DNA of 64,000 nt from a virus, in IMG/VR virus record IMGVR_UViG_3300042311_000920, positions 9,440-73,439 of that record; one strand, written 5' to 3'. Shown in pieces: positions 3,826-25,378 of this stretch (its first letter is position 1; every line of letters starts with the position of its first letter). A program made the position numbers and the translations under genes. The notes under the pieces are model-generated. The model saw only the letters and a list, made by a program, of their open reading frames with translations, had not been told where the DNA came from and searched no databases.

Positions 3826-3950
3826 AACGGATTGCGGTTTTGTCTTGTTGCCGAAAATACAAGACCAATTTTAATTTAAAAAACTATGAATACAAGTACA
3901 AAAAATTCATCAAATGAAGCCGAAAATGGCAATAAGTCAAAACCGCTGTT
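3826..3950. repeat. attC-like hairpin, close relative of 6085-6209
   Basis: Arms GCGGTTTTGTCTTGTTGCC / GGCAATAAGTCAAAACCGC; shares TTTGTCTTGTTGCCGAAAATACAAGACCAA with 6085-6209. Confidence 0.85.
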
Positions 3951-4119
3951 ATATGATGGCATTTTCGTAGGGCAGAAAGTTATTGATGAAGATTGCGATA
4001 AAGGAACGATAACAGAAATAGAAAATATCTACAATGTTTATGTAAAATATGATAATGGCGGAAGTGGTATTTCTTGTTTAAATGGTTGTTGCAACGACAG
4101 GTTGTATGCTATCATATAA
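3886..4119 (+). CDS. cassette hypothetical protein
   Basis: Starts in hairpin loop (…EAENGNKSKPLL); TAA lies in the terminal TAAC. Confidence 0.6.
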   Translation: MNTSTKNSSNEAENGNKSKPLLYDGIFVGQKVIDEDCDKGTITEIENIYNVYVKYDNGGSGISCLNGCCNDRLYAII

Positions 4120-4255
4120 CGTTTTCGGGCTTGGCGAAGTGCCGCTAACCGAAACTTAATTTTTAGCACTAACTGTCCTGCGGCATTTTGCCAAACCCGT
4201 GTTATGGGATAGTTTTAAAAACCTTTTAGGGTGGGCATTTAAAAACAAAATTAAA

Positions 4256-4651
4256 ATGGGAATGTACACAGAATTAATTTTTGGTGCTGAATTAAAAAAA
4301 GACACACCAAACCAAGTAATTGAAGCCTTGAAATATATGATAGGTGAAACAAAAGAAAAGCCAAGTGATTTCCCGTTACCTGATGGAAGATGTGAATGGT
4401 TATTTCAAGGCGGTAGCTATTACTTCGCTATCAATAATTCAGTAACAAAAATGTGGCTTGATGATATTGATAAGCAATGGCATATTAGCACACGTTCAAA
4501 TATTAAGAATTACGAAAGTGAAATTGAAACATTTTTAGACTGGATAAAGCCATACATTGACGGTGGTTCTGGTGGTAGAGATTTATATGCCATTACCATT
4601 TATGAAGAACAAGACACACCAACTCTTTATTATTTGCACGATGCTGATTAG
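4256..4651 (+). CDS. cassette hypothetical protein
   Basis: ATG 4256 inside cassette 4201-4691. Confidence 0.7.
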   Translation: MGMYTELIFGAELKKDTPNQVIEALKYMIGETKEKPSDFPLPDGRCEWLFQGGSYYFAINNSVTKMWLDDIDKQWHISTRSNIKNYESEIETFLDWIKPYIDGGSGGRDLYAITIYEEQDTPTLYYLHDAD

Positions 4652-4688
4652 TACGGTGCGGTGGGAAAAGGTTTTTAAAATTTCCCAT

Positions 4689-4754
4689 AACGTTTTGCAG
4701 ATACACGCTGTGAGCGTTGAATTGAGGGAGGGGAAATAGCGTGTATCTGCTGTT
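4689..4754. repeat. short attC-like hairpin
   Basis: AAC-GTTTT-GCAGATACACGCT...AGCGTGTATCTGC-T-GTT, perfect 13-bp arms. Confidence 0.85.
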
Positions 4755-4795
4755 ATGCCTTCGTTGCGGATTATTAACTTAAAAACTAAAATATA

Positions 4796-5122
4796 ATGGA
4801 TAAATTTCCAAAATTCATCATAGAAGATGATAAATTAATACTAATGAAAGTAACATATCATAAAGAGATTGCTACTGATTTAACTAAAGTAAAAGGCGGT
4901 GGTTGGTTTAAATATTTGCAACATACCGATATGTTTGTTTTTAGCGGAGAAAGCCACGATTTTGGCAAAGCTAAATTTGAAGATATAAAACAATGTGTTG
5001 CAAATTGCCAAGTATATTCAGATAACCGCCTTTACCGAAATATCAGTAATAATCACAATTTTGGATATGATACAGGAACAGAAATTATCGAATTGAAAAC
5101 GGAATGTAGCAATGAGGCATAA
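4796..5122 (+). CDS. cassette hypothetical protein
   Basis: Fills cassette 4752-5123. Confidence 0.7.
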   Translation: MDKFPKFIIEDDKLILMKVTYHKEIATDLTKVKGGGWFKYLQHTDMFVFSGESHDFGKAKFEDIKQCVANCQVYSDNRLYRNISNNHNFGYDTGTEIIELKTECSNEA

Positions 5123-5261
5123 CGTTTTGCAGCTATATGTCTGTTGCCAAAAGTAAAAAACAATGCTTCGATTAAGCACAAATAATCACAAGTACAAAAC
5201 AAATTATAAATCAAGCCGAATGTGGCAATAAGTCAAAACCGCTGTTATAAGTAGTACGGAT

Positions 5262-5402
5262 ATGAAAATCACAAAAGAATTTTTAGAAAAAATAAAAAAA
5301 GAAAACAATATATTGATATTTAAACTAGCGTCGATTGAGGGTAAAATACCAAAAGAAATACAAGACACATTACCTAAAGAAGTAATTACAAACAGATTGT
5401 AG
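5262..5402 (+). CDS. cassette small hypothetical protein (46 aa)
   Basis: MKITKEFLEK...NRL*, fills cassette 5244-5415; below ORF-track cutoff. Confidence 0.5.
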   Translation: MKITKEFLEKIKKENNILIFKLASIEGKIPKEIQDTLPKEVITNRL

Positions 5403-5557
5403 TATTACTTATAACGTTTTGCAGGTAGGCGATAGTGCCGCTTACCACAAACTTTAAATCAAAGCACTCAGGCTCATAGCGGCATTTTGCCTACCTGCTG
5501 TTAGGTGTCTGTAAAAAATAAATTTAGCGTGGGCTTAAACTTTAAATAACAAACAAA

Positions 5558-6043
5558 ATGGAATTACAAGAATTAATTGAAAAGAACAAACTGCAATTAC
5601 GCACACAAGAAGATATTTCTGCAAAGTTTGACGAATTGCAAAATTCAGGTGGCTTTATGGATTTTCGACCAGAAGTATTGATTAACTTTTTATCATTTGA
5701 AAACGCAAAGCCACATTTGAAAGAAGACTACGTGAAAGAAGTTGAAGCAGGAACAAAGCAATGGGAGCAACATACTACGGTTGAAAAGGCTGCCGAAGAG
5801 TTTTTGGACTATATGAAATTTGCTTGGGGTAAAGCCGAAGATGAACGTGGAATTTCAGCAAGCCGTTCAGTTCAAAAACTAGGAATGTGGCTTTGGATTA
5901 TGAACCGAGATGATTTGCGTAGAGTTATTGAGGATGATGATTTGTACAATCCTTATGGCGCACCTGCTTTAATTGAAGTTTGCAATCAAATGGGTATAAA
6001 AGTTCCAAACTCATTAATCGAATTTGCTAAGATAAAATGCTAA
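5558..6043 (+). CDS. cassette hypothetical protein
   Basis: 161-aa ORF in cassette 5500-6087. Confidence 0.75.
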   Translation: MELQELIEKNKLQLRTQEDISAKFDELQNSGGFMDFRPEVLINFLSFENAKPHLKEDYVKEVEAGTKQWEQHTTVEKAAEEFLDYMKFAWGKAEDERGISASRSVQKLGMWLWIMNRDDLRRVIEDDDLYNPYGAPALIEVCNQMGIKVPNSLIEFAKIKC

Positions 6044-6084
6044 TTATGTTGGGTGCGGTGGGAAATTTATTTTTTATTGCACCT

Positions 6085-6209
6085 AACATTCTCGTGGCTT
6101 TGTCTTGTTGCCGAAAATACAAGACCAACTTTAAATTTATCACTATGAAAAATGACACAAAACCAGCATTACCCGAAGCCGAAAACGGCAATAAGTCAAA
6201 ACCACTGTT
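6085..6209. repeat. attC-like hairpin, close relative of 3826-3950
   Basis: Arms GTGGCTTTGTCTTGTTGCC / GGCAATAAGTCAAAACCAC. Confidence 0.85.
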
Positions 6210-6582
6210 ACAAGCAGTGTTTTTCGCTCCTTATTTGCCTTATTCGGTAAAAATAGCTTATGATTATTTTGGAGATACACAAGAAATAGCAACATTAATA
6301 GGTGTTGAAGATAGAAATGGAGAAACTAGATTGCAAATTAATACTGGCGGAAGTGCTTTGTTAAAATATTGCAAACTTGTTTTAAAACCTTTTTCAGATT
6401 ATACTGAAATATTAGAAATAACAGATGAAATGAATGATTATGAAATCCAAATGATTGAAGATAATCCTGATTTAATAAAACGACTACCTTATGATGTGGT
6501 TGAAAAAATGTTTAAAAATCACATTGATGTTTTCGGACTTATTAATTTCGGTTTAGCCGTTTCAATTCACGATGTTGTGTAA
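6145..6582 (+). CDS. cassette hypothetical protein
   Basis: ATG 6145 in hairpin loop; N-terminus …EAENGNKSKPLL as in 3886. Confidence 0.65.
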   Translation: MKNDTKPALPEAENGNKSKPLLQAVFFAPYLPYSVKIAYDYFGDTQEIATLIGVEDRNGETRLQINTGGSALLKYCKLVLKPFSDYTEILEITDEMNDYEIQMIEDNPDLIKRLPYDVVEKMFKNHIDVFGLINFGLAVSIHDVV

Positions 6583-6735
6583 CATTGCTTGTAACGTTCC
6601 GCAACTACACGTCTGTTGCGTAAAAGTACAAAATTACCTTTCAGTTTAACACGGAATTGAAAGGTACAAAAACATCACTAAATTAATCACAAATCTAGCA
6701 ATAGCGTGTAATTGCTGTTATCAAATCGGTTTATT

Positions 6736-7062
6736 ATGAAAAGATTACCTGTTATACACGATGTAAAAGTTTGGAGTAGATTTTGGCAAAATCTAACTAT
6801 CGAAGAAAAAAACTTTGAATTAAGAAAATTAGATAGAGATTATCAAGTAAATGATTATTTACGATTGAATTTCTATTCAGAAGATTTAAAAGAAATTATA
6901 GAAACTGAAAAGCCTAAAATTGCTAAAATTCAATACATTTTAAAAGATGCTGAAATGTTTGGATTGCAAAAAGATTACGGAATATTATCCTTAAAATATT
7001 ATAGTTCTTTTTCTTTTCAAGAAAGGGTAGAGTTTTTGAAAACGCAAACCCAAACTGTTTGA
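6736..7062 (+). CDS. ASCH/PUA-like DUF3850 protein (cassette)
   Basis: HDVK...KNFELRKLDRDYQVNDYLRL matches the DUF3850/ASCH pattern. Confidence 0.7.
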   Translation: MKRLPVIHDVKVWSRFWQNLTIEEKNFELRKLDRDYQVNDYLRLNFYSEDLKEIIETEKPKIAKIQYILKDAEMFGLQKDYGILSLKYYSSFSFQERVEFLKTQTQTV

Positions 7063-7134
7063 TAACGGCTACGCATATACGCAGTAGCGGATTTAAAACA
7101 CAAAAGTTTAATTAACAAATAAAAGTAAAATAGA

Positions 7135-7476
7135 ATGAAAAAGTTTAAAATTAGCACAGTAGCCGCTATTGCCGTATATGCGATGTTAGCGGTTGTTTTT
7201 ACTTCTTGTGATGATGCAGGGGTAACTTCAAAAAGATTAAATGGCGATGAACAAAATTTGCCTGATGAACTGAAAGGACTAAAAATTTATTCAGTTTCGA
7301 CAGGTAATGGGAATTATGTAAAAGTTGCCGTTTTAGACGGTAAGATAAACTCAACAACTTACCAAGTAGGTAAAGTTCAAGAATCGACAGTAATAGTAAA
7401 TAAACAAAACGGCAAACTTATAGAGGTTAGCCAAATTTTGGTTGAAAACGACAGCGTGATTGTCTGCCGAAAATAA
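7135..7476 (+). CDS. putative lipoprotein (cassette)
   Basis: MKK + hydrophobic stretch + lipobox FTSC. Confidence 0.7.
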   Translation: MKKFKISTVAAIAVYAMLAVVFTSCDDAGVTSKRLNGDEQNLPDELKGLKIYSVSTGNGNYVKVAVLDGKINSTTYQVGKVQESTVIVNKQNGKLIEVSQILVENDSVIVCRK

Positions 7477-7548
7477 CCGCTAACGGTTCTCGGCTTTGTC
7501 GTCGTTGCGACTTATGAAAACTAATATTAATATTTTAAACTAAACGAA

Positions 7549-7833
7549 ATGAAAAACGATAATTCAACTAAACAAAGCAATGCGTCAAAACCGATGTTAG
7601 CGGAAGGCTGGATTTCTGTTAACGATAGAAGACCAAATGAAAATCAAACAGTATGGTGTTATTCAGAAAACACATTTAACATATTTGTAGGAGTTTATAT
7701 TTACCTTACAAATGAAGGTTGGTTTTGGGCTTCAAGTAACGGTTGCTTTTATATTGAAGAGGGAAAAATAATAACAGAATGTGAGATTGATGATTTTGAT
7801 GTTACACATTGGTTTCCCGCTCCAGTTCTGTAG
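7549..7833 (+). CDS. DUF551-like protein (cassette)
   Basis: WISVNDRRP...VTHWFPAP signature. Confidence 0.75.
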   Translation: MKNDNSTKQSNASKPMLAEGWISVNDRRPNENQTVWCYSENTFNIFVGVYIYLTNEGWFWASSNGCFYIEEGKIITECEIDDFDVTHWFPAPVL

Positions 7834-8060
7834 CTTTCCGCTAACGTTTCTCGGCTTTGCTTTGTTGCGGAAAAGTAAGCCAAAACTTTAGATTTAAAAA
7901 CAAAATTAACAAATACAAACCAAACATTCAGTTAAGCCTAAAACCGCAATAGAGCAAAACCGATGTTATAAGTAGCTTTTATTATGGATGAAATAATTTT
8001 ATGTTTAGGAATGATTGTTGGATTAATATTATTTATAATTAGTATAAAACAAGAGTAAAA

Positions 8061-8333
8061 ATGGAAAGTAAAATAGAATATTTTAATAGATACAGTGATA
8101 CGCATTTGCCTGATAAAATGAATAGATGGGCAAGAATAGCTGTATTTAAAAACATTAGAATTGCTTGGATAAGTAAACATAAGATTAAAGAGCAAGATAC
8201 ATTTTGTGTAACGTGCCATTTTCCAACTATGCAAAATGATACAGCAAACGAAAGTAAAGTTTTCTTTAGTTTAGAAGATGCAAAAGATTTTGTTTCTGAA
8301 AGATGGAATTTTTTTTTAACCGCAGTTTCTTAA
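8061..8333 (+). CDS. cassette hypothetical protein
   Basis: In cassette 7965-8346, preceded by a 24-aa hydrophobic mini-ORF at 7984-8058. Confidence 0.65.
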   Translation: MESKIEYFNRYSDTHLPDKMNRWARIAVFKNIRIAWISKHKIKEQDTFCVTCHFPTMQNDTANESKVFFSLEDAKDFVSERWNFFLTAVS

Positions 8334-8464
8334 AGTTACTTATAACGTTCCCACGATAGGGGCTGTTTGCCTATTTACAAAGTTGCTTTCGGCAAATAGC
8401 ACTTATCGTGTGTTGTGCGATGGTGCTTTTAAATACAAATATTAACCAATTAAATTACAATAAA

Positions 8465-8680
8465 ATGTCAAAACGAAAATACTCAAAAATGTCGGACAAA
8501 GTTGAAATAACACATTATGAATGTACTAATAGAAAGTGCAAGTGGCAAGGAACTAATAAACAAAAAGGAACTCAATATTTAGATAATGGATTTACGGAAT
8601 TGATTTGCCCTAAATGCTGTAATAATGAATTTTACGGATTACTTCCGTCTTATGTAGATTCTATTTCTGCGGTTTCGTAG
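8465..8680 (+). CDS. small Zn-ribbon-like protein (cassette)
   Basis: CTNRKC...CPKC; ATG 8465. Confidence 0.6.
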   Translation: MSKRKYSKMSDKVEITHYECTNRKCKWQGTNKQKGTQYLDNGFTELICPKCCNNEFYGLLPSYVDSISAVS

Positions 8681-8846
8681 CATCTCGCACAACGTATCGG
8701 TGCTATACGATGTGGCGGATTTTCGGCAGAAAGCCCAATACGAAGCACCACAGTTGAATTAAATAAAAATGTTTAATCGAAGCACGTCAGCCGCCATATT
8801 GTATAGCACTTGTTAGCGGATGCCGTTTCTTCACAACAATTTTAAA

Positions 8847-9083
8847 ATGGAATATAAAGCACAAGAACTCAAAAAAGATTTAATAACAAAGCGTTGCATT
8901 GATAACGATATGACAATGGATGAAGCCTGTAAAGAAATAGGAATTTCAAAAGCCACTTTGTCAAGGTTGGAAAAGTCTAAACTGCCAGATGTTGAAACAT
9001 TAGGTAAGGTTTGCACTTGGTTAGGAACTGAACCAAATAAATACTTTGTCATTATTCGTAAGCGTCAAGACGGTTTCCGCTAA
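8847..9083 (+). CDS. XRE-family HTH regulator (cassette)
   Basis: MTMDEACKEIGISKATLSRLEKSKLPDVETL. Confidence 0.85.
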   Translation: MEYKAQELKKDLITKRCIDNDMTMDEACKEIGISKATLSRLEKSKLPDVETLGKVCTWLGTEPNKYFVIIRKRQDGFR

Positions 9084-9255
9084 CCGTTCGGGGCTTGTAG
9101 CAGTAGGGGATTAGAAGCACTACTGTTCAACCTACCACAAAAGCTGATTAGAAGTACACAGCTTAATTAAAGCACTTCTGCCCCTATTGCTACAAACCCT
9201 TGTTAGCAGAAGTGGCGGTTAATTTACAAGGGTGTCAATTTTAAAACGTAAAAAA

Positions 9256-9558
9256 ATGATTAAAAATTCAGAACAACCAATCAGTCCAATGCCTTACCAA
9301 AATCAAGATGGCTCTATTCAACACGATGTTTATTTTGGATTAACTAAAAGAGAACATATTGCTATTGAAGCAATGAAGGGCTTTTTAGCAAACCCATCTG
9401 AAACAGAAGTAAGTTCAACTTATGTATTGGAAGCAATCGGGTTGCCAAAAGAAACTAAGTATTCATTTGATGAGCATTACACAAAGTATGTTTCACAAAT
9501 AGCAGTCAAATATGCCGATGCCTTATTAAAGGAATTGTCAATCGGAGACGGTCGGTAG
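9256..9558 (+). CDS. phage hypothetical protein with GLTKRE motif (cassette)
   Basis: GLTKREHIAIEAMKG...AVKYADALLKEL pattern common in phage small proteins. Confidence 0.7.
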   Translation: MIKNSEQPISPMPYQNQDGSIQHDVYFGLTKREHIAIEAMKGFLANPSETEVSSTYVLEAIGLPKETKYSFDEHYTKYVSQIAVKYADALLKELSIGDGR

Positions 9559-9628
9559 CCATTTCTGCTAACGGCTACGGCTATGTGCAGTAGCGGATTT
9601 AAAACACTAAACTTTAAATATAGAACGA

Positions 9629-10420
9629 ATGATGATAGTAGAACAAATTTTGAATAACGCACCGAACCCGCTATTGCATATAGCCGATGTTAGTGGCGGT
9701 GCTTTGTTCAATGCTGATTGTATGGATATTTTACCTCTTATTCCTAATAAATCGGTTCAACTTATTTTGGCTGATTTGCCTTACGGAACAACAAGTTGTG
9801 CGTGGGATTGTATTATTCCATTTGACAAACTTTGGGCTGAATATGGTAGAATAATAAAAGACAATGGTGCAATAGTTTTAACGGCTTCACAACCATTTAC
9901 AAGTGCCTTAGTAAACAGTAAAATTGAATGGTTTAAATATGCTTTAGTTTGGGAAAAAGAAAGACCAAGCAACCCTGCACACGCAAAGATTAGATTTATG
10001 AAATGGCACGAAGATATTTTGATTTTTTCACCTAATAAAGAAAAGTTTAATCCACAAAAAGAAAAACGATTAGAGCAAAATAAAAGGAATAACAAACAAG
10101 GTGTATTTCATAAATCTGATGCTTATGGAGAACAAACAATACCACAAGGCGATGGGATGGCTGATGAAAAGTATTTGAGTAGCATATTAAAGGTAAATGT
10201 TGAAAGAGGGTTGCACCCAACGCAAAAGCCGTTAAAACTATTTAAAACATTGATTAGTGCCTTTACGGATGAAAATGATTATGTACTTGATAATACAATG
10301 GGAGTAGGCACAACTTGTTTAGGAGCAAAAGAGTTGAACCGTTCCTTTATTGGAATTGAAAAAGAGGTAAAATATTATGATTTGGCAGTTGGTCGGGTGT
10401 TCGGTCAGCATTGCCACTAA
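9629..10420 (+). CDS. N6-adenine/N4-cytosine DNA methyltransferase, beta class (cassette)
   Basis: DLPY catalytic motif, HPTQKP, VLDNTMGVGTT SAM motif. Confidence 0.92.
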   Translation: MMIVEQILNNAPNPLLHIADVSGGALFNADCMDILPLIPNKSVQLILADLPYGTTSCAWDCIIPFDKLWAEYGRIIKDNGAIVLTASQPFTSALVNSKIEWFKYALVWEKERPSNPAHAKIRFMKWHEDILIFSPNKEKFNPQKEKRLEQNKRNNKQGVFHKSDAYGEQTIPQGDGMADEKYLSSILKVNVERGLHPTQKPLKLFKTLISAFTDENDYVLDNTMGVGTTCLGAKELNRSFIGIEKEVKYYDLAVGRVFGQHCH

Positions 10421-10574
10421 CGGTTTCGGGCTTGGCGAAGGTGGGCTTGTAGGATGCTCAATTTTAGCAGAATGTTTCTGCCCACTTTTGCCAAACCCGT
10501 GTTATGTGTAGTTGCGGTTGTTTATCAGGAACTTAAATTGAAAACGAATAAAAAAGAATTAGAAAAAAGAAGCG

Positions 10575-11276
10575 ATGGAATTAAATAAAATATATAACGA
10601 AGATTGCATTGAAGGTATGAAGAAAATACCATCTGCGAGTATTGATATGGTTCTAACTGACCCACCATATACATCTCCAACTGTTCACGCATTCGGAAGG
10701 CAAAAAGTAAACCGATTATCAGATTTAGCAATACAAGAATTTTACTTTGCTGAAATCAAAAAGGAATGGGAACGAATACTGAAACCCAATGCACCTGTTT
10801 TGATTTTCTGCGATGATATTTATAGTGCTGTTTTGATGGGTTTGTTTTACGAATGGCAACAAAAGAATTTAGTTATTTGGGATAAGGGTAGAATTGGAAT
10901 GGGAAACCCGTTTAGAAAACAGCACGAACTTGTATTTTATGCAAACAGAGGAAGTATTGAATTGAATAAAACCAATATGAGCCACATTCCTACTGTAATA
11001 AAAGAAACGCTAACAAAAGAACATCACGGAGCAGAAAAGCCAGTAAAACTATTGATGAAACTGATTGACGGACTTACAAAAGAAAATGCAACAGTTTTGG
11101 ATTGCTTTATGGGAAGTGGCTCAACTGCGATTGCTTGTTTAGAAACGAAAAGAAACTATATCGGTTTTGAACTTGATAAAAGCTATTATGAAACTTCACA
11201 AAATCGTATTTCTTCCTTGTGCGGTGGGCTTTTTTCTAATTCTTTTTCAACGGAAAGTTCAATTGAAACGGGATGA
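10575..11276 (+). CDS. N6/N4 DNA methyltransferase, beta class (cassette)
   Basis: TDPPY, HGAEKP, VLDCFMGSGST. Confidence 0.92.
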   Translation: MELNKIYNEDCIEGMKKIPSASIDMVLTDPPYTSPTVHAFGRQKVNRLSDLAIQEFYFAEIKKEWERILKPNAPVLIFCDDIYSAVLMGLFYEWQQKNLVIWDKGRIGMGNPFRKQHELVFYANRGSIELNKTNMSHIPTVIKETLTKEHHGAEKPVKLLMKLIDGLTKENATVLDCFMGSGSTAIACLETKRNYIGFELDKSYYETSQNRISSLCGGLFSNSFSTESSIETG

Positions 11277-11290
11277 TAGCAATTACACAT

Positions 11291-11337
11291 AACGTTTTGC
11301 AGATTGGCGGTCGTTTTAATGCCGCCAATGTGCTGTT
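11291..11337. repeat. minimal attC-like hairpin (47 bp)
   Basis: AAC-GTTTT-GCAGATTGGCGG...CCGCCAATGTGC-T-GTT. Confidence 0.8.
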
Positions 11338-11400
11338 ACAGGTAGTAGGGATTTCTACCACAAAACTTAATTAGAAGTACAAACAAAAAAGAATTTAAAA

Positions 11401-12276
11401 ATGAGCGAGGGCAAAAAAAGAAAAATTAAAGTATTATCATTATTCGATGGTATGAGTTGCGGACAAATAGCTTTAAACAAGCAAGGGATTGAATATGATG
11501 AATATTTTGCTTCTGAAATTGACAAAGAAGCTATAAAGGTAACTATGAAAAACTACCCAAACACAAAACAATTAGGTAGTATTACGGAACTAAAAGGAAT
11601 TGATTTGCCAAAAATAGATTTGCTATTTGGCGGAAGCCCTTGTCAAAGTTTTAGTAGAGCAGGAGATAACAGTGGATTTGACGGAAGTAGTAAATTGTTT
11701 TGGGAATTTGTAAGAGTTTTGAATGAAGTAGAACCTACTTACTTTTTACTTGAAAATGTAATTATGAAAAAAGAATGGGAAGATGTAATTACGGAAGCGT
11801 TAGGAGTGAAACCTATTGAGATTACAAGTGCTAAATTTGTACCACAAGCAAGACGAAGATTATATTGGACTAATATACCCAATGTAACGCAACCGAAACA
11901 ATCTGAATACACTGTTTTAGACTTTATTGATGGTGATGGGTTTCCGACAAGTTGCGGAATTGATAGAGTTTTTAAACGCAAAGAAATATTTAATACTTTG
12001 ACGGCAACTTATTGGAAAGGAATTAGAGGAAGTTCAAGACCAGCAGTAAGTATTAGAGAAGGATTTTTAGATGCGGACAGAGAAGCACACCGTATGCTAA
12101 CACCAACAGAATGTGAACGACTACAAACAGTACCTATTGGATATACGGATTGTGTTGCTAAAACAAATAGATATAAGATGCTTGGTAATGGTTGGACAGT
12201 TGATGTGATTGCTCATATTTTTTCTTTTTTAAAGGAGGGGAAATTTTTAAATTCTTTTTCTGACGAAAATGTTTAA
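11401..12276 (+). CDS. C5-cytosine DNA methyltransferase (cassette)
   Basis: LSLFDG, GGSPCQ, LLENV, QARRRLYW, RMLTPTECERLQ, LGNGW. Confidence 0.93.
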   Translation: MSEGKKRKIKVLSLFDGMSCGQIALNKQGIEYDEYFASEIDKEAIKVTMKNYPNTKQLGSITELKGIDLPKIDLLFGGSPCQSFSRAGDNSGFDGSSKLFWEFVRVLNEVEPTYFLLENVIMKKEWEDVITEALGVKPIEITSAKFVPQARRRLYWTNIPNVTQPKQSEYTVLDFIDGDGFPTSCGIDRVFKRKEIFNTLTATYWKGIRGSSRPAVSIREGFLDADREAHRMLTPTECERLQTVPIGYTDCVAKTNRYKMLGNGWTVDVIAHIFSFLKEGKFLNSFSDENV

Positions 12277-12377
12277 TCAAAGCACTTCACCGCTATTACC
12301 TGTAACGGTTCTCGGCTTGGCGAAGTTGCCGAACACAAAACTTCATTAGAATTACAAATGTTTAAATCAAAGATAGA

Positions 12378-13022
12378 ATGTCAAACGAAGCACAAAACGG
12401 CAATTTTGCCAAACCGATGTTAGCACCAGTACGGGTTTTAAATCTATACGCTGGAATTGGAGGAAACCGAAAACATTGGGAAAATGTAGAAGTAACTGCA
12501 ATAGAATACAACGAAGAAATTGCAAATGTTTACAAGAAATTACATCCAAACGATAATGTGATAGTTACTGATGCACACGATTATTTGGCTAAAAATTGGA
12601 GAGAGTTTGATTTTATATGGAGTTCGCCACCATGTCAAAGTCATAGCAAAGTAAGAATGATGGCAAGTAAAAGCGGAAGTTATGATGCTGTAATGCCTGA
12701 TATGAAATTGTGGAGTGAAATAATTTTTTTACAGAACTTTACTAAAAACACAGATATAAAGTTTGTAGTTGAAAATGTAAAGCCTTATTACGAACCATTT
12801 GTAAAACCAACTGCAAAACTTGGTAGGCATTTATTTTGGGCAAACTTTGAAATACCTGAAGCCGAAATAAAAGATGGATTAACCCACAATGAAAGAGGAA
12901 GTTCTGAAAAAGGTTATTTTGACTTACGAGAATATAAAATAAAACACAGAAAAGACCAAATAATTCGTAATTGCGTTGACCCAAATGTAGGACAATATGT
13001 TCTCGGTTGTGCAGTTTCGTAG
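12378..13022 (+). CDS. short C5-methyltransferase-like protein (cassette)
   Basis: LYAGIGG, SPPCQ, ENV; no obvious TRD or motifs IX-X. Confidence 0.85.
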   Translation: MSNEAQNGNFAKPMLAPVRVLNLYAGIGGNRKHWENVEVTAIEYNEEIANVYKKLHPNDNVIVTDAHDYLAKNWREFDFIWSSPPCQSHSKVRMMASKSGSYDAVMPDMKLWSEIIFLQNFTKNTDIKFVVENVKPYYEPFVKPTAKLGRHLFWANFEIPEAEIKDGLTHNERGSSEKGYFDLREYKIKHRKDQIIRNCVDPNVGQYVLGCAVS

Positions 13023-13066
13023 TATTGGTGCTAACTAATCGCTAATCGCTATAAAACCAAATCAAA

Positions 13067-14032: not shown

Positions 14033-15331
14033 ATGGCAACAATTAAATTTACCGTGCGAGGGAAGAAAAACCCGTCGCCCATCTACATCCGTTTTGCAGA
14101 GGGAAAAAATATAGACCTTCACGAAAAATCTGGACTTTATGTAAATCCAATTTTTTGGGACCAGAAAAAGCAACAGATCCGGAAAGTTCTCGAAGTAGCA
14201 AACAAAGACGATATCAATTCCAATCTTCGGAAACTTGAAATTTATTTGATTGATGAATTTAATCAATCATTTATGACCGGCCAAGTAATAAATAAGCAAT
14301 GGCTGTTGCAATCTATCCAAAAATTCTTTAATCGCCCTAAAAACGAAGAAAAACTACAAAATTTAAAGCATCACATTTATTTTTCAGATTACGCCCAACA
14401 CTGGATTGATAACAAGGCTAAAAAATTCAAAGTTGCCGCCAATAAATATATGGACGAAACAACGATAGGACATTATCAGCAAGTTTTGGATAACTTCAAA
14501 GATTTCGAAGGAAAAAACAAAGTAAAACTATGCGATTTAAGCAACTTAAAATTAGACGAGTTCTCTTTATACCTTTCAGATACTAAAAGCTATTCAGAAT
14601 CTACTAGCAAGCGTAAAGTTGGACGCGTTAAGTTCTTTTGCGCACGTGCCGAAAGCGACAATTTAGAAGTCAACAAACAATACAAAGAAAGAGTTTTCGT
14701 CAAAGAGCAAGAAATCGAATACAAGCAGCCTTATTTAAACGAAGATGAAATTAACAACATTTTTAAATTGAAACTAGAACCTAATTGTCCAATGGATCAT
14801 GTTCGAGATAATTTAATAATTGGATTATGGACTGGCTTAAGGGTGTCAGACTTTCTAACGAGATTAAACGTCTCCAATATTCAAGATGGTTTTATCAAAA
14901 TAAAAACAATGAAAACAAAAACATTTGTCAATATTCCGATACACTCACAAGTAGCTTTTATTTTGAATAAAAGAAACGGACAACTACCTAATAAAATATC
15001 AGAGCAAAAGTTTAACGACCACATAAAAACCTTGACGCAGATAGTAGGTATTGATGATTTAATGATTGGAGGAGTGATGAAAGTTGACGAAAAAACTAAA
15101 GTTAAAAGGAAAGTAATTGATACATATAAAAAGTGGGAGTTAATGACCTCTCACGTTGGGCGCAGATCATTTGCTACAAATTTGTTCGGAAAAGTATCTA
15201 ATAAAACCATTTGTGACGTATGCGGCTGGTCAAATGAAGATATGCTTTTTGCTTACAACAAAACCACGAACATGGAATCAGCGAATGTACTTAAGGATTA
15301 CTGGGATAAAAAATACGAATCAAAAATATAA
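14033..15331 (+). CDS. int: tyrosine recombinase / phage integrase (Bacteroidota type with arm-binding and SAM-like domains)
   Basis: TGLRVSD (R), KTMKT (K), SHVGRRSFATN (HxxR), CGWSNE, FAY (Y); 432 aa. Confidence 0.92.
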   Translation: MATIKFTVRGKKNPSPIYIRFAEGKNIDLHEKSGLYVNPIFWDQKKQQIRKVLEVANKDDINSNLRKLEIYLIDEFNQSFMTGQVINKQWLLQSIQKFFNRPKNEEKLQNLKHHIYFSDYAQHWIDNKAKKFKVAANKYMDETTIGHYQQVLDNFKDFEGKNKVKLCDLSNLKLDEFSLYLSDTKSYSESTSKRKVGRVKFFCARAESDNLEVNKQYKERVFVKEQEIEYKQPYLNEDEINNIFKLKLEPNCPMDHVRDNLIIGLWTGLRVSDFLTRLNVSNIQDGFIKIKTMKTKTFVNIPIHSQVAFILNKRNGQLPNKISEQKFNDHIKTLTQIVGIDDLMIGGVMKVDEKTKVKRKVIDTYKKWELMTSHVGRRSFATNLFGKVSNKTICDVCGWSNEDMLFAYNKTTNMESANVLKDYWDKKYESKI

Positions 15332-16522: not shown

Positions 16523-16553
16523 AAAAATAATTGAGATTTAAATCTAAAATAAT

Positions 16554-16584: not shown

Positions 16585-16591
16585 CCTTGTC

Positions 16592-17518: not shown

Positions 17519-17519
17519 A

Positions 17520-18502: not shown

Positions 18503-18662
18503 TGGAAGCCTATACTGTCCAAATCTGGTACCGATACGCTGGCGGAGACGAAAAAGATTTCTTTGAAACAGAAATTGAAGCCGAAACCATCGAAGAAGTA
18601 ATTACTAAAGCAAAATCATTAAGAAACAATGTAACGAGAATTTACATCAAAAAGAAAAACCA

Positions 18663-19982: not shown

Positions 19983-19984
19983 CC

Positions 19985-21403: not shown

Positions 21404-21406
21404 TCA

Positions 21407-21850: not shown

Positions 21851-22007
21851 AAAACAATCTATCATTTTTAGAGTTCAGTCGCTACTTATACGGCTACAAC
21901 GTTTACAGTAAAAAAACAGAACAAGTAATCCCAAGGTATCAATTGTATTGGGCAGGCTACACGATCGAGAGAATCAAACAGAATTTTAACCTTAAGCCAA
22001 GAGTAAA

Positions 22008-22187
22008 ATGACAACTTACGGACAAATAGTTGACGGTAAAAGAATAACACTAAATGACTTTGAAAAACAAGTTCGAGAAGGCGTTTCTGGCATCGTAACT
22101 AACCTAACATCAGCGGAAATAGCCAAACGTTACCGTAAAGGCGAATCCGTGGATAATGCAGTGAGTTATTTTATAATGCACAAGTAA
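22008..22187 (+). CDS. small hypothetical protein (59 aa)
   Basis: MTTYGQIVDG...MHK*; its TAA forms the left boundary of array 2. Confidence 0.55.
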   Translation: MTTYGQIVDGKRITLNDFEKQVREGVSGIVTNLTSAEIAKRYRKGESVDNAVSYFIMHK

Positions 22188-22265
22188 CGTCCTGTGGCTT
22201 TGTCTAGTGGCGTTGAATTAAGACTAGACACAACAAAAATACACTAATTATTAAATTTAAAAATT

Positions 22266-22586
22266 ATGATTTCAGATAACACCCAATCCAAGCCATTAAA
22301 CAAAACGACTGTTAGCGGTTCGGTTACTGACAATATGACCTTTAAAGACGCTTTAAAGTCATTAGGAATAGAAGATTATGCTGAACGGATTTTTAATAGT
22401 AATTCACACGGAGAATTATTTCATATTCAACAGTATTTTACTTTAGCAAAGGTTCTAAAAGGAAATTCAGAGTGGTTTAGAGAATGGTTTGAAAAAGTTG
22501 TGAAATGGGCAGAAGAAAATTGGGAACGACCAGAATCAATTTTCCAACACATTAGTCAAATTTTAGTAGATAGTCGTTCTAACTGA
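22266..22586 (+). CDS. cassette hypothetical protein
   Basis: ATG in hairpin loop; an internal ATG is also possible. Confidence 0.65.
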   Translation: MISDNTQSKPLNKTTVSGSVTDNMTFKDALKSLGIEDYAERIFNSNSHGELFHIQQYFTLAKVLKGNSEWFREWFEKVVKWAEENWERPESIFQHISQILVDSRSN

Positions 22587-22874
22587 CGGCTAACTGATTT
22601 ACCTGATTACAACGGGAAAAGAGCTTTTGGATTAGGTTCGGTAGACGAAATTTGGATTATAGATGATTTTGAATATTGTACGGAATATCCTGATTTACCG
22701 ATGCGATAACATTACCACTAACGTTTTGCAACTTGCATTAGTGCCTTGCAAACAAGCGAGTAGTTTCGGATTAAGACTAAACACAACAAAGAAAAACAAA
22801 ATATAAATTAATAACCAAGCCAAAGGCATTGATGCAAATTGCTGTTATCACTTCGGCTTTTTATTCCAAAAAAT

Positions 22875-23117
22875 ATGACAACAGATGAAATGCTTATCGA
22901 AATTGTAAATTACAATTACAAATCCGCTGGTTTTCCTTATGTATTTTTAGACTACTCACAATCTTTTAAATATTGGGCAATTACTTGGCGAAATCCAGTT
23001 GATTTTTCAAATGAAAAACAAACTAATGCACCAACTCCAAATGAGGCGTGTAAAAAAGCACTCGAATTTATAAAAAGCAATCCGAGTATTTTTAGCCGTT
23101 CCAACCAAGCTGAGTGA
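22875..23117 (+). CDS. cassette hypothetical protein
   Basis: ATG 22875 within cassette 22844-23121. Confidence 0.65.
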   Translation: MTTDEMLIEIVNYNYKSAGFPYVFLDYSQSFKYWAITWRNPVDFSNEKQTNAPTPNEACKKALEFIKSNPSIFSRSNQAE

Positions 23118-23278
23118 TAACGTTTCCACGCTTGGCGAAGGTGGCGATTTTAACCACAAATACTGATGCGTAGAACGAAATTTGAATATAGCAATAATTG
23201 TCAAGCGGAGTACTGCACCGCCACTTTTGCCAAACGTGTGTTATGCGTTCGGCTTTTTTGGAACTTAAAAATTTGATT

Positions 23279-23668
23279 ATGAAAGAAAGTATTATTAGAT
23301 GTCCAATTTGCAGTAAGATTACAGCGTTGGAAAAAAATGGACGAACTCAAAAAATAGAGCAAGTTCACGGAATTTGTTGGGATAAAATTGGCTATTCGAT
23401 TGGTGGGTGGGGAAGCCGAAGAGATTTTATTCACGGATTTTCTGGCGAAGTTTGTAATGATTGTTTCACAGCTTTAAAAACAAAAATCAATGAATTTAAA
23501 GAAGTTGTTAACCAAAGAACAAACTCCTGCGAAGAAGGGGTATGTATTTACAAAACATCAAAAGACAAATCAACAGGGGATAACCTGTCTGACCTGCAAC
23601 AAGACGAGTTACAATCCAAACGACATAAAACACCTTTATTGCGGTTGCTGTCATCGTTTTCACGATAG
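23279..23668 (+). CDS. cassette Zn-finger-like protein
   Basis: CPIC...CNDC; ATG 23279. Confidence 0.55.
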   Translation: MKESIIRCPICSKITALEKNGRTQKIEQVHGICWDKIGYSIGGWGSRRDFIHGFSGEVCNDCFTALKTKINEFKEVVNQRTNSCEEGVCIYKTSKDKSTGDNLSDLQQDELQSKRHKTPLLRLLSSFSR

Positions 23669-23681
23669 CGTTGTAAGCTGA
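23490..23681 (+). CDS. overlapping small Zn-finger protein
   Basis: CLTC-NKTSYNPND-IKHLYCGCCH; stop falls in the cassette end. Confidence 0.5.
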   Translation: MNLKKLLTKEQTPAKKGYVFTKHQKTNQQGITCLTCNKTSYNPNDIKHLYCGCCHRFHDSVVS

Positions 23682-23748
23682 CGCATAACGTTTCGCGGCT
23701 ACACGAGGTTTGGGACTAAATTAGCAATAATTTTTAAATTTAATACAA

Positions 23749-24582
23749 ATGATAGAGATACAAAACCAACTTGAAATTAAGCCTGAAACGGCAATAGCAC
23801 AAAACCGATGTTACCAGCAGTGTTTTTTGTCGGACAATTTGGATTTAATGAAAACAATAGAAAGCAATACCATTGATTTGATTTACTGCGATATTCTTTA
23901 CGGAACTGGCAGAAACTTTAGCGACTACCAAGACTTAAAACCGATTAGAAGTGAAATTGAAGCACATTATTTACCACGATTAAAAGAAATGTATCGAATA
24001 CTAAAACCAACAGGGAGTATTTATTTACAAATGGATACAAGAATAAACCATTGGATGCGAATTTTAATGGATGATATTTTTGGCTATGATAGAATGTTGA
24101 ATGAAATTGTAGTTTGTATTAGTAAAGGAAATCAAACAAACAAACACTTTGCAAAAAGGCACGATATTTTACTTTATTACACAAAAACAAAAGAATGGAT
24201 TTATAATTTAGATGCTGTTTCAAAAGAAAATCCTGAACATAAAAGGTATAAATACCAAGATGAAAAAGGAATGTATAGATGGCATATTGAAAGCATCAAA
24301 GATTATAAAATGTATCTTAAAAAACAAAATATAAACGATGTTTGGAGTGATGTAGGAATTGTTCAAGGCAACTCAATAGAAAATACAGGTTATTCTACAC
24401 AAAAACCAAAATCATTGATTGAACGAATTATAAAAGCAAGTAGTAACGAAGGAGATTTAGTTGCTGATTTCTATGCTGGAAGTTTTACAACAGCAGTGGT
24501 TTGTAAAGAACTAAATAGGAATTTTATCGGATGCGATATTAATCCTTTGGCTTTGGAGATTTCAAAACAACGATTGGCTTAA
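23749..24582 (+). CDS. N6/N4 DNA methyltransferase, beta class (cassette)
   Basis: DLIYCDILY (variant DPPY), YSTQKP, VADFYAGSFTT. Confidence 0.88.
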   Translation: MIEIQNQLEIKPETAIAQNRCYQQCFLSDNLDLMKTIESNTIDLIYCDILYGTGRNFSDYQDLKPIRSEIEAHYLPRLKEMYRILKPTGSIYLQMDTRINHWMRILMDDIFGYDRMLNEIVVCISKGNQTNKHFAKRHDILLYYTKTKEWIYNLDAVSKENPEHKRYKYQDEKGMYRWHIESIKDYKMYLKKQNINDVWSDVGIVQGNSIENTGYSTQKPKSLIERIIKASSNEGDLVADFYAGSFTTAVVCKELNRNFIGCDINPLALEISKQRLA

Positions 24583-24731
24583 CATTGCTGGTAACGTTTG
24601 TGGCTTTGCTTAGTGGCTGAAAAGCAAGCCTAAATTATTGAATTAAAAACAAATTTTACAAACACAAAACAGTGTTGAAATTTTGCCCGAAACAGCCATT
24701 GAGCAAAACCACTGTTATAAACAGGCTTTTT

Positions 24732-25346
24732 ATGAAAATACTTAATTTATATTGTGGTATTGGTGGAAATAGAAAACTTTGGGGAAACGAACACGAAATA
24801 ACTGCTGTTGAATTTGAACCAAAAATAGCTGAAAAATACAAAACTTTATTTCCAAATGATACGGTAATAGTTGCAGATGCACATCAGTATTTACTTGACC
24901 ATTATTCAGAGTTTGACTTTATATGGACTTCTCCACCTTGCCAAACACATAGCCGAGCAAATTATTTTATAAATTATATTACTAATTCTCGTTACCCAAA
25001 AATGGAATTATGGCAAGAAATAATATTCTTAAAATCATTTTTTAAAGGCAAATTTTGTGTTGAAAATGTAGTTAGTTATTATGAATTTTTTATACCACCG
25101 ACTGCTGAAATAGGAAGGCATTATTTATGGTCTAATTTTAAAATACCAAAAATACCATTGCCAAAAGATGAAGTAGGAACTATGATGAAAGAATATGTAG
25201 GCAAAAAAAATCACGCACATAGTAAGAAATTAGAAGATAGAAACGCTGTTAATTCAGATTTAGGACTTCATATTTTAAATTGCGCAACAGAAAGTTATAA
25301 TCAAAATAATGTTGAACAGATAGGTTTGTTCAAAGCTTGTTTATAA
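24732..25346 (+). CDS. short C5-methyltransferase-like protein (cassette)
   Basis: LYCGIGG, SPPCQ, ENV; paralogue of 12378-13022. Confidence 0.85.
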   Translation: MKILNLYCGIGGNRKLWGNEHEITAVEFEPKIAEKYKTLFPNDTVIVADAHQYLLDHYSEFDFIWTSPPCQTHSRANYFINYITNSRYPKMELWQEIIFLKSFFKGKFCVENVVSYYEFFIPPTAEIGRHYLWSNFKIPKIPLPKDEVGTMMKEYVGKKNHAHSKKLEDRNAVNSDLGLHILNCATESYNQNNVEQIGLFKACL

Positions 25347-25378
25347 CTAATTTATAACCGCTATAAATGTATTACAAA

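Follow-up and report, generated by a model that had tools for sequence, protein, structure and literature searches.

In the DNA stretch analysed here (the window, 64,000 nt), small genes alternate with hairpins, and the two ends of a gene unit pair with each other save for a recurrent G·T at position 11. This raises the question of what could read a fixed irregularity within otherwise variable sequence. Integron attC sites, known from class 1 integrons and Vibrio chromosomal integrons, are recombined by IntI as folded single strands, and extrahelical bases set the choice of strand. We consider it probable that the regions 2990-13035 and 22186-25347 of this 73-kb phage of lake-water Bacteroidota type are two integron-like gene cassette arrays, whose coding strand would be recombined in folded form, with the wobbles as half-site and strand marks. 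The putative arrays and their hairpin sites are:

2990..13035, +, cassette array 1 (19 hairpin sites, 19 cassettes), bounded by the TAAC belonging to a non-cassette gene and by the AAC of the final cassette
22186..25347, +, cassette array 2 (5 hairpin sites, 5 cassettes)
2990..3117, +, hairpin site (AAC...GTT); A instead of G at +1, inner T(-15) and A(-7) present
3433..3546, +, hairpin site
3826..3950, +, hairpin site; ATG (3886) of the downstream ORF in the loop
4118..4203, +, hairpin site; + strand fold with AACG/TGTT base, 4-nt bulge, one C·A and two G·T
4689..4754, +, hairpin site
5121..5246, +, hybrid hairpin site; basal stem unpaired, presumably because left and right arms come from different families
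5413..5502, +, hairpin site; a contig departs from the window exactly at 5412
6085..6209, +, hairpin site; A at +1, ATG at 6145 in the loop
6593..6719, +, hairpin site; 82-90% identity to sites of Flavobacterium phage isolates
7064..7187, +, hairpin site; ATG at 7135 in the loop
7482..7598, +, hairpin site; ATG at 7549 in the loop
7843..7967, +, hairpin site
8344..8414, +, hairpin site
8691..8814, +, hairpin site
9082..9204, +, hairpin site; C at +1
9570..9691, +, hairpin site; ATG at 9629 in the loop
10419..10503, +, hairpin site
11291..11337, +, minimal hairpin site; 41 nt from AAC to GTT, loop TCGTTTTAATG found again in many phages
12304..12421, +, hairpin site; other lake-metagenome contigs part just before 12303 and just after 12423
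22186..22313, +, hairpin site, first of array 2
22720..22846, +, hairpin site
23119..23242, +, hairpin site
23687..23812, +, hairpin site
24593..24716, +, hairpin site

All 24 window hairpins carry T at -1, T at -15 and A at -7, G is found at +1 in 21 of them, and the inner half-site (see below) is intact in every one.

According to the original prediction, the ends of at least twelve cassettes pair perfectly except for base 11. We checked the opening 15-30 nt of every cassette, counting from GTT, against its reverse-complemented final nucleotides (closing AAC) and find a start G facing a mirrored end T at position 11 in 12/12 of them (3948, 5244, 6207, 7185, 7596, 7965, 9202, 10501, 11335, 12419, 23810 and 24714), with Watson-Crick pairs at positions 1-10 and 12-14 in all twelve. 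Position 15 is paired in 8/12, being unpaired in 5244, 7596, 11335 and 12419. Likewise borne out is the predicted second subtype (4752, 6717, 22844, 23240), in which 9 bp are followed by TCG at the start against TG at the end (T·G, then C bulged out, then G·T) and by at least 4 bp. Other small irregularities, which also close in a G·T, are seen in five cassettes (4201, 5500, 8412, 8812, 9689). The mark is present in 21 of the 24 window cassettes, the exceptions being the first, second and twentieth in the list:

3115-3435, cassette; ends non-complementary, without G·T mark
3544-3828, cassette; 10 bp only, then T vs T, without G·T mark
3948..4120, +, cassette; G 3958 vs T 4110
4201..4691, +, cassette; start TAG vs end TT, G 4212 vs T 4681, distal helix 11 bp
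4752..5123, +, cassette of subtype 2 (TCG/TG); G 4763 vs T 5113
5244..5415, +, cassette; G 5254 vs T 5405
5500..6087, +, cassette; irregular CTG/TT, G 5511 vs T 6077
6207..6595, +, cassette; G 6217 vs T 6585
6717..7066, +, cassette of subtype 2; G 6728 vs T 7056, DUF3850 protein
7185..7484, +, cassette; G 7195 vs T 7474
7596..7845, +, cassette; G 7606 vs T 7835, DUF551 protein
7965..8346, +, cassette; G 7975 vs T 8336
8412..8693, +, cassette (GTTG start); TGG/TC irregularity, G 8423 vs T 8683
8812..9084, +, cassette; T·T at position 10, G 8822 vs T 9074, HTH protein
9202..9572, +, cassette; G 9212 vs T 9562
9689..10421, +, cassette; G·T at positions 10 and 11 (G 9699 vs T 10411), N6/N4 methyltransferase
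10501..11293, +, cassette; G 10511 vs T 11283, N6/N4 methyltransferase
11335..12306, +, cassette; G 11345 vs T 12296, C5 methyltransferase
12419..13035, +, last cassette of array 1; G 12429 vs T 13025, short C5-methylase-like protein
22311-22722, cassette; without G·T mark
22844..23121, +, cassette of subtype 2; G 22855 vs T 23111
23240..23689, +, cassette of subtype 2; G 23251 vs T 23679
23810..24595, +, cassette; G 23820 vs T 24585, N6/N4 methyltransferase
24714..25347, +, last cassette of array 2; G 24724 vs T 25337, short C5-methylase-like protein

The larger set comprised 370 unique cassettes at 95 loci of IMG/VR and isolate phages, defined solely by consecutive hairpins (the hairpin detector yields 647 hits on real DNA and 58 on shuffled DNA). 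Position 11 is G·T in 257 of the 370 and Watson-Crick in 27. The ends are non-complementary in 101/370 and an exact 4-bp distal helix is absent in 60 further cassettes; some of those excluded are compound or decayed units, or false hairpins. Among the remaining 209 well-formed cassettes the mismatch is not randomly placed: 202 show G·T, 2 a Watson-Crick pair, 5 another mismatch and none the opposite polarity. Across the 370 cassettes, cognate arms are Watson-Crick paired to ~80% at positions 5-9 and to ~69% at positions 12-15, compared to 26-50% in a control of non-cognate arm pairs, and cognate pairing falls to background at position 16; chance pairing of the ends is excluded. Position 11, in contrast, is still G·T in 69% of the non-cognate pairs. 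Hence the predicted covarying sequence with fixed irregularities resolves into variable end positions, which covary, and two fixed bases, G11 and T11. Such fixed bases within covarying arms are what a folded-strand recognition site predicts, and at the level of sequence this reading is supported.

Start G and end T might instead mark two different double-stranded half-sites, as in XerC/XerD arms or transposon ends, without any folding. Xer enzymes normally act on duplex sites, the recombinase family linked to such arrays is Xer-like (see below), and G11 and T11 are fixed rather than covarying in the non-cognate control. However, positions 5-9 and 12-15 vary between cassettes yet are complementary within one, a pattern that a duplex-binding protein could not impose. 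Moreover, the bulge variants (TCG/TG, ATG/TT) keep the G·T and the distal helix in register, and the non-Watson-Crick pairs of the inner stem, described next, are polarised toward one-strand wobbles. We regard duplex half-sites as a very improbable explanation.

The 12-nt box ATTnCnnnTAAC, with T at position 11, is found again, inverted, within every hairpin; a site thus contains a pair of half-sites, and each half-site has its own T·G wobble. The profiles of end arm and inner 3' arm agree best at register 0 (score 0.443, compared to at most 0.31 at ten other shifts). For 148 rebuilt sites, picked via an outer-arm G/A rule, so that only inner features are unselected, the inner T11 is present in 144/148 and its partner is G in 106/148. 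The recurrent G·T and C·A pairs noted earlier in the hairpin arms are recovered as G·T at inner-stem position 14 (106/148) and C·A at inner position 5 (35/148). Comparing the folding of top and bottom strands, the coding strand is more stable in 146/148 rebuilt sites, by 4.7 kcal/mol on average (DNA parameters), and in 8/8 in-situ window sites. Over 20 inner-stem positions of the rebuilt sites, 291 coding-strand wobbles stand against 55 C·A or A·C mismatches, a 5-fold excess.

The original prediction had inferred recognition of a folded single strand, ssDNA or RNA, by analogy to the extrahelical bases of attC. Recognition of a folded strand gains support from the fixed G11 and T11 amid covarying ends and from the strand asymmetry; since the folded strand is also the mRNA strand, sequence does not separate ssDNA from RNA. 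The analogy to attC may hold for function, whereas the G·T itself is not extrahelical but forms the 11th pair of a 12-nt half-site occurring twice per site.

The hairpins and the long-range end pairing could thus be viewed as mRNA structures with G·U pairs, acting in translation control, processing or stability, the modularity of the DNA being a by-product of homologous exchange between repeated hairpins. The wobbles sit on the coding strand, many ORF start codons lie inside hairpin loops, and in 61/308 cassettes the reading frame that stops at the TAA within TAAC extends back, uninterrupted, over GTT and into the hairpin upstream; wobbles of the G·U type would thus suit an RNA fold equally. 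Array-bearing phages without the recombinase exist as well. Against this, no T run was seen 3' of the hairpins, which are therefore not terminator-like, an Rfam search gave no match, and the layout, in which a short central region is flanked by inverted boxes that both end in AAC, is that of a recombinase core site. Two further observations, on breakpoints and on recombinase linkage, likewise argue against RNA folds, which we consider unlikely.

First, swaps and shared units break exactly at TAAC and not within the repeated hairpins. Loci L130 and L135 have flanks of 97-99.99% identity and unrelated arrays, with both breakpoints directly 3' of TAAC. The cassette common to L033 and L088 brings its own upstream hairpin, and similarity ends at AAC on either side. 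Contigs of other lake metagenomes follow the window as far as 2989, 5412 or 8346 and diverge beyond, and one contig matches 7964-8346 before diverging.

Second, an Xer/IntI-like tyrosine recombinase adjoins the arrays of related phages with strict polarity. The gene is encoded at 80 loci, 62 of which have >1 kb of upstream sequence; in 59/62 of these, signature cassettes lie upstream on the same strand. Relative to the gene, 229 cassettes are upstream, 2 downstream and none on the other strand; the final AAC lies within 100 nt of it in 36 loci, and in recombinase-bearing arrays this AAC is followed by a conserved TATTATATAT. The enzyme is a small Xer-like tyrosine recombinase of 268-277 aa, nearest to XerA, XerD and XerC models and structures; it matches the integron-integrase model in two stretches with 151-164 bits, compared to a cut-off of 265. 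Related recombinases are common in Bacteroidota chromosomes. Recombinase adjacency and TAAC breakpoints together suggest, by comparison, that the sites are linked to recombination.

In the window phage, whose genome is estimated to be 100% complete, the array-linked recombinase was not found. Its only tyrosine recombinase was rejected as array-associated enzyme, being a lysogeny-type integrase of a different family. Complete genomes of array-bearing isolates, Flavobacterium phages 11b and lillamy9-1, gave no match to PF00589. The integrase and the sequences 3' of the two arrays are:

14033..15331, +, only tyrosine recombinase of the window phage; 432 aa, arm-binding, SAM_5 and catalytic domains
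13036..13057, +, non-hairpin sequence 3' of the final AAC of array 1; candidate docking-site remnant, similar to 25348-25369 and to L088
25348..25369, +, non-hairpin sequence 3' of the final AAC of array 2

Without an array-linked Xer-like gene of its own, the window phage would have to rely on an enzyme supplied in trans, whether from its host or from a co-infecting phage, or its arrays would be recent imports. The imported arrays might also be inert relics that are no longer recombined, with the G·T inherited rather than maintained. Besides the missing recombinase, the hybrid hairpin at 5121-5246, three cassettes with imperfect or absent end pairing, and terminal sequences unlike the conserved one of recombinase-bearing arrays are compatible with such decay. 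Yet 21/24 cassettes and all 24 inner half-sites have stayed intact, other lake samples hold the same units in different contexts with breaks at unit borders, and the related chromosomal recombinases of Bacteroidota could act in trans; inert relics are distinctly unlikely.

From the anatomy, conservation, covariation, strand asymmetry, recombinase linkage and TAAC breakpoints, the following integron-like mechanism can be proposed. On the coding strand, the mobile unit begins directly after an AAC with G, a 3-4-nt bulge, an imperfect hairpin and T-GTTA, and continues with start arm, gene and end arm up to its own closing TAAC. In a circular unit, or where the ends meet in single-stranded DNA, end and start arms would close a 15-bp outer stem atop the hairpin. 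The closed fold would resemble a tyrosine-recombinase core site built from one folded strand, with two inverted 12-nt half-sites, the 5' one in the cassette end arm and the 3' one inside the hairpin, separated by an asymmetric central region. Within both half-sites, T at box position 11 faces a G, the wobble noted earlier being the outer of the two, and a third G·T (G+1 with T-1) would adjoin the crossover. We infer two roles: the recombinase may read the wobble as a half-site component, and the wobbles may restrict folding to the coding strand, because they turn into C·A mismatches on the complement. This would make them the functional counterpart of attC extrahelical bases. The small Xer-like recombinase encoded directly 3' of the arrays in related phages is most likely the enzyme involved; it would cut the folded strand at TAAC.

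The proposed sites share with integron attC sites the imperfect hairpins of variable length bounded by AAC...GTT, the pairing of the cassette's first bases with the far end of the site, the location of the hairpin, which on the folded strand lies on the 5' side of the cassette body, the crossover at AAC, and outer (R-like) and inner (L-like) half-sites each ending in AAC; the folded-strand order of array, docking site and recombinase gene is that of integrons, too. In contrast, the recombinase of the relatives is Xer-like, short and under integron-integrase cut-offs, the outer stem measures 15 bp compared to 7 in attC, and strand asymmetry is due not to single extrahelical bases but to a 3-4-nt bulge and to G·T wobbles at fixed positions. 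Unlike in integrons, the phage cassette genes lie on the folded strand, many starting in the hairpin loop, and therefore face the recombinase gene.

Xer recombination acts at dif, and some mobile elements, the CTX phage among them, exploit Xer via a folded single-stranded site. Similarly, the phage enzyme would use half-sites of ~11-12 bp around a short central region, with a folded single strand as substrate. Unlike Xer/dif, the phage system has arrays of many sites with gene cassettes, a dedicated phage-borne enzyme, no chromosome-dimer role, and half-sites whose sequence varies freely save for a few fixed bases.

Phage attC clusters have been reported by Qi et al. (2023, Front Microbiol, PMC9892861). 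In the passages concerned, the sites are treated as classical attC, found with HattCI and Infernal and tested with IntI1. Of the predicted attC sites of Polaribacter phage P12002L, IntI1 recombined one that was supplied in single-stranded form, which speaks for the integron-like reading, and the other site failed, which speaks against it; the 'divergent directions' of the P12002L sites are remarked upon. As described there, those phages resemble the window phage: their attC-like sites stand in rows that lack an integrase and include orphan DNA methyltransferase cassettes. We find that P12002L carries G·T-signature cassettes, one adjoining its methyltransferase genes, matched to that study by phage and not by site coordinates. 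A word search of its main text finds neither 'wobble' nor 'extrahelical', and neither an Xer-like partner enzyme nor a 15-bp cassette-end stem is described in those passages and section 3.4.

In conclusion, small genes of a lake-water phage appear to be cassettes that can be swapped and that form integron-like DNA hairpins with their ends; the fixed G·T looks like part of a code that lets a recombinase read one strand only.

The virus contig is estimated to be complete at 73,439 bp, of which the window covers bases 9440-73439 with a G+C content of 35%. Portal, large terminase and virion proteins are encoded in the minus-strand half, and within the two arrays every gene lies on the + strand, with 24 imperfect hairpins between the genes. 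The main features are as follows:

2990-13035, + strand: array 1
22186-25347, + strand: array 2
13036-13057: non-hairpin sequence at the end of array 1
25348-25369: non-hairpin sequence at the end of array 2
14033-15331: gene for a 432-aa integrase
32098-39591, - strand: very long ORF (2497 aa) of the structural module
42977-48025, - strand: very long ORF (1682 aa) of the structural module

Stretches of array 1 are also present in lake-water and other metagenomes, and individual hairpin sites of the window are 71-90% identical to sites of cultured Flavobacterium and Cellulophaga phages. A megablast search with 40000-60000 against phage records gave no match, and a tRNA scan of the window found none.

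A cassette is here taken to begin at a GTT and to run as far as the following AAC, and its ends were compared by setting the first bases against the reverse complement of the last. The original prediction had named 12 cassettes whose ends pair perfectly except for G opposite T at position 11. This holds for all 12, in which positions 1-10 and 12-14 are Watson-Crick paired; position 15 is paired in 8 of them. The second subtype, said to carry an extra T and C before the same G·T pair, is equally real: its four "TCG" cassettes have 9 bp, then T·G with a C bulged out ahead of the G·T pair, and more helix beyond. Five further cassettes show other small irregularities likewise ending in G·T. The G·T mark is thus present in 21 of the 24 window cassettes and missing from 3115-3435, 3544-3828 and 22311-22722; in 21/24 the outer box at the far end of the cassette is matched by complementary bases at its start. 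The ends of the first cassette (3115 and 3435) are unpaired. Here, the first hairpin is followed by a 29-nt stretch between GTTA and CAAC and then by a short degenerate hairpin (3140-3190); 3115-3190 is possibly a unit that is empty or has collapsed. A coding reason for T11 was considered and rejected, since only 78 of 308 cassettes have an ORF that stops at the TAA of TAAC and takes up 60% or more of their length.

For a larger set, IMG/VR was searched with a 14-nt motif (118 stretches, many matching by chance), and further loci were taken from the neighbourhoods of two genes; the 26 loci around a RecT-like gene held few cassettes. The first stem scans were noisy outside arrays, and an end-pairing scan and a stricter hairpin detector were used instead. 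To avoid circularity, this detector considered the hairpin only (AAC followed by G or T, a bulge of 2-6 nt, at least 12 of 14 stem pairs, and T before GTT); it gave 647 hits in real DNA versus 58 in shuffled DNA. Taking the sequence between consecutive hairpins as a cassette, we obtained 370 unique cassettes from 95 loci. An all-against-all comparison of 147 cassettes found only one pair common to different contigs.

In ungapped comparison of the 370 cassettes, positions 5-9 are Watson-Crick paired in 72-84%, against 26-49% in non-cognate arm pairs, and positions 12-15 in 64-71%, with background level from position 16 on; judged against this control, the end pairing reaches 15 bp. Position 11 is G·T in 257 cassettes and Watson-Crick in 27. 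Since it is still G·T in 69% of the non-cognate control, G11 and T11 are fixed bases, the neighbours of which covary. When small bulges are allowed, 209 cassettes are well formed, and 202 of these carry G·T directly before the distal helix, the others having a Watson-Crick pair (2) or another mismatch (5), with no case of opposite polarity. Random mismatch positions in a larger set, which would have spoken against the original prediction, are therefore not what is found. The less regular remainder of the 370 comprises 101 cassettes with unpaired ends and 60 without an exact 4-bp distal helix.

The hairpins themselves show where this wobble belongs. The window holds 24 attC-type sites, imperfect inverted repeats with AAC...GTT ends and 41-125 nt between AAC and GTT. 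To these we added 148 sites of other loci, rebuilt by a script that joins end arm, upstream hairpin and start arm and selected on the outer arms only; their lengths have modes at 40, about 80 and about 118 nt. AAC is followed by G in 143 of the 148 and GTT preceded by T in 146, and in the folds these two bases pair as a second G·T. A 5'-side bulge of 3-4 nt follows AAC-G in 134/148, and base -7 is A in 147/148. In line with the recurrent G·T pairs and C·A mismatch first noticed in the hairpin arms, 106/148 sites have G·T at position 14 of the inner stem and 35/148 have C·A at inner position 5. Recurrent single-base bulges of the extrahelical kind were not found in the folds, which have the 3-4-nt bulge and fixed G·T pairs instead.

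Aligning the end-arm profile with the inner 3' arm (-16 to -5) gives the best score, 0.443, at register 0, all other shifts scoring at most 0.31. At this register A12, T11, T10, C8, A5, T4, A3 and C1 are common to both boxes. The T11 of the inner box, which was not selected for, occurs in 144/148 rebuilt sites, and in all 24 window hairpins the bases at -15, -7 and -1 are T, A and T. The site thus consists of two inverted 12-nt half-sites, one in the cassette end arm and one inside the hairpin, each with T·G at position 11 and with an asymmetric centre between them; the position-11 wobble of the cassette ends is that of the outer half-site.

Two individual sites of the window deserve mention. 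The hairpin at 11291-11337 is a minimal site of about 40 nt with a near-constant loop, TCGTTTTAATG, the end of which is an ATG; similar minimal sites were seen at ten further loci and recur across many unrelated phage contigs, and the 40-nt length is found in 14 of the 148 rebuilt units. The hairpin at 5121-5246 is a hybrid, with a left arm like those of the 4689 and 6593 sites and the right arm of the 3826 site, in which the distal stem alone pairs. An exchange within two hairpins, instead of at TAAC, may have produced it.

The two strands fold differently. Under DNA parameters, the more stable fold is that of the coding strand rather than its complement in 146/148 rebuilt sites (mean difference 4.7 kcal/mol) and in 8/8 window sites folded in situ, where the AAC/GTT base of the hairpin is paired on the + strand only. 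Over 20 inner-stem positions, wobbles number 291 versus 55 C·A and A·C mismatches. A role of the hairpins as terminators was rejected, as no T run follows them. The main rival reading is that the folds act as RNA, and it is favored by the identity of the transcribed and the folding strand and by the many ORFs that start in loops; Rfam has no match in the window. One such ORF, at 7135-7476, starts in the upstream hairpin loop and by eye has a lipoprotein-like N-terminus (a hydrophobic run, then a cysteine), part of the run being encoded by the hairpin right arm and the cassette start arm. From the sequence and its predicted folds, we interpret the arrays as integron-like, with the folded coding strand as the one that would be recombined and the fixed wobbles serving as half-site marks and as a block on folding of the complementary strand. 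Both boxes point with their 3' ends towards the centre, and the crossover is seen at the end of the outer box, a polarity in keeping with what is known of tyrosine recombinases.

The extent of the mobile unit follows from breakpoints between related contigs. One cassette is common to loci L033 and L088 (93% identical); its upstream hairpin is shared from AAC on, and similarity is lost right after the terminal AAC. In a second pair, L130 (2832-4543) and L135 (384-3036), unrelated arrays of 1712 and 2653 nt lie between the same two TAAC borders, with both breakpoints directly 3' of TAAC; the flanks are 97.4% and 99.985% identical, and the recombinases, located in the 99.985% downstream DNA, are identical. 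Three records among contigs from other lake samples agree with the window as far as 2989, from 5412 onward and across 7964-8346, respectively, and diverge beyond. The metagenome comparison comprised four runs, all of them contigs, stretches left uncovered being uninformative; joints with 19-40-nt sides in hairpin arms common to many units, most of those listed, were excluded from the count. A further pair of loci, 99.3% identical over 5.6 kb, diverges at 5644 inside a helicase-like gene, off any cassette border, and was rejected as a cassette event in favor of a mosaic break. As the breaks lie at AAC or TAAC and the hairpin is shared together with the body, the mobile unit is a hairpin plus the body downstream of it, running from the break after one AAC to the break after the next. 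A classical integron cassette, read on its recombined strand, has the same topology.

Which enzyme might serve these sites? The only PF00589 match in the window genome is the 432-aa integrase (14033-15331), which has arm-binding and SAM_5 domains. We consider it an unlikely candidate: a search of viral contigs found no relatives, and the one other locus with a homologue showed no signature cassettes. Isolates 11b and lillamy9-1 carry arrays and have no PF00589 match. At L055, L130 and L135 a small Xer-like recombinase of 268-277 aa (Phage_int_SAM_4 plus catalytic domain), unrelated to the window's integrase, begins just past the array. An alignment of these three enzymes, used for a scan, brought up 197 viral relatives; the counts cover 80 of them, 62 with more than 1 kb upstream. 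Signature cassettes lie upstream on the same strand in 59 of these 62 loci, the last AAC being within 100 nt in 36; altogether 229 cassettes lie upstream and 2 downstream, with none on the other strand. After the last cassette the relatives have a conserved AAC followed directly by TATTATATAT, 27-90 nt before the recombinase gene, a candidate counterpart of the attI docking site that classical integrons have between array and integrase gene. The array-linked recombinase is absent from the window genome, where both arrays end in similar non-hairpin sequence with no cognate enzyme adjoining. These ends contain ATAACCGCTA-like or AATCGCTA-like letters, and the array end of L088 is of the same kind, compared with AAC-TATTATATAT in recombinase-bearing arrays.

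The best model for the array-linked enzyme is the archaeal XerA/integron integrase family (184-198 bits), below its cut-off of 220. XerD (156-175 bits, cut-off 330) and the integron-integrase models TIGR02249 (151-164 bits in two stretches, cut-off 265) and NF011946 (86-104 bits, cut-off 435) give lower scores still, and the nearest structures are XerA (4a8e, the closest), IntI4 and XerD. Relatives are common in Bacteroidota genomes (80 of 213 genomic loci examined). Some arrays there precede the gene on its own strand, others follow it with reversed polarity, and the G/A rule applies to 64 of 81 end-pairing hits at these loci. The downstream layout, in which the folding strand is opposite to the recombinase gene, was seen on eight bacterial contigs; it is frequent in Bacteroidota chromosomes, has larger cassettes (0.5-3.7 kb) and differs from the phage layout.

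With regard to cargo, N6/N4 methyltransferases are encoded in three cassettes and C5 or C5-like methyltransferases in three; other products are an HTH, a DUF3850 and a DUF551 protein, and Pfam had no match for eleven of the other ORFs tested. The six orphan methyltransferase cassettes lie at the distal ends of both arrays (9629-13022 and 23749-25346), and no restriction enzyme was recognised. Given these orphan methyltransferases and the many unknown small genes aboard, the arrays are likely a reservoir from which aquatic Bacteroidota phages can exchange anti-defence and accessory genes.

Compared with classical integrons, the window shares AAC...GTT attC-type sites of variable length and sequence, and first bases that pair with the far outer box, here over 15 bp rather than 7. 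In contrast to classical integrons, no IntI-type integrase adjoins the array, and the relatives' enzyme stays below the integron-integrase cut-offs. Where integrons have extrahelical inner-box bases that set the strand choice, the folds here show the 3-4-nt bulge and fixed G·T pairs. Whereas integron genes lie opposite the recombined strand and upstream of their own attC, here the coding strand folds better and the hairpin moves with the ORF downstream of it. By anatomy alone, the 24 sites fit a CALIN (at least 2 attC sites with no integron integrase nearby). In Xer/dif systems, a recombinase recognised by an Xer equivalog model acts on a duplex dif-like site of 28 bp; the array-linked enzyme scores below the XerA and XerD cut-offs. 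Attachment-site clusters (attC) without integrase in virulent phages, including Polaribacter phage P12002L, are described by Qi et al. 2023 (PMC9892861), according to whom IntI1 recombined one P12002L site supplied as ssDNA. P12002L carries cassettes with the G·T signature. The words "wobble" and "extrahelical" are absent from the main text of that paper, and its passages including section 3.4 describe neither a long cassette-end stem nor an Xer-like partner; excerpts of PMC7077304 and PMC8776804 do not mention hairpins, palindromes or cassettes. We found no paper on the G·T mark or an Xer-like partner, where subscription journals and the supplements of Qi et al. may hold more. Standard integron finders may miss or misorient such arrays, for which a search signature is available: GTTR and five paired bases, next a small irregularity that closes with G opposite T, and at least four further paired bases.

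To our knowledge, folded-strand recognition with free sequence has been worked out for one tyrosine recombinase family only, IntI, which relies on extrahelical bases. Judged from sequence, the sites described here carry another mark, wobble pairs set at constant distances from the cut, and their enzyme appears to be a shorter, Xer-like one. We see about even chances that the position-11 T·G wobbles of both half-sites, together with the cut-side G·T, are the code by which a separate folded-ssDNA recombinase lineage recognises its sites and chooses the strand. Its members would be short Xer-like enzymes without the IntI insertion, serving gene-cassette platforms of phages and chromosomes in the Bacteroidota. 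If true, what integrons achieve by extrahelical bases would have been solved independently a second time, and the wobble marks give a concrete, testable rule for folded-strand recognition.
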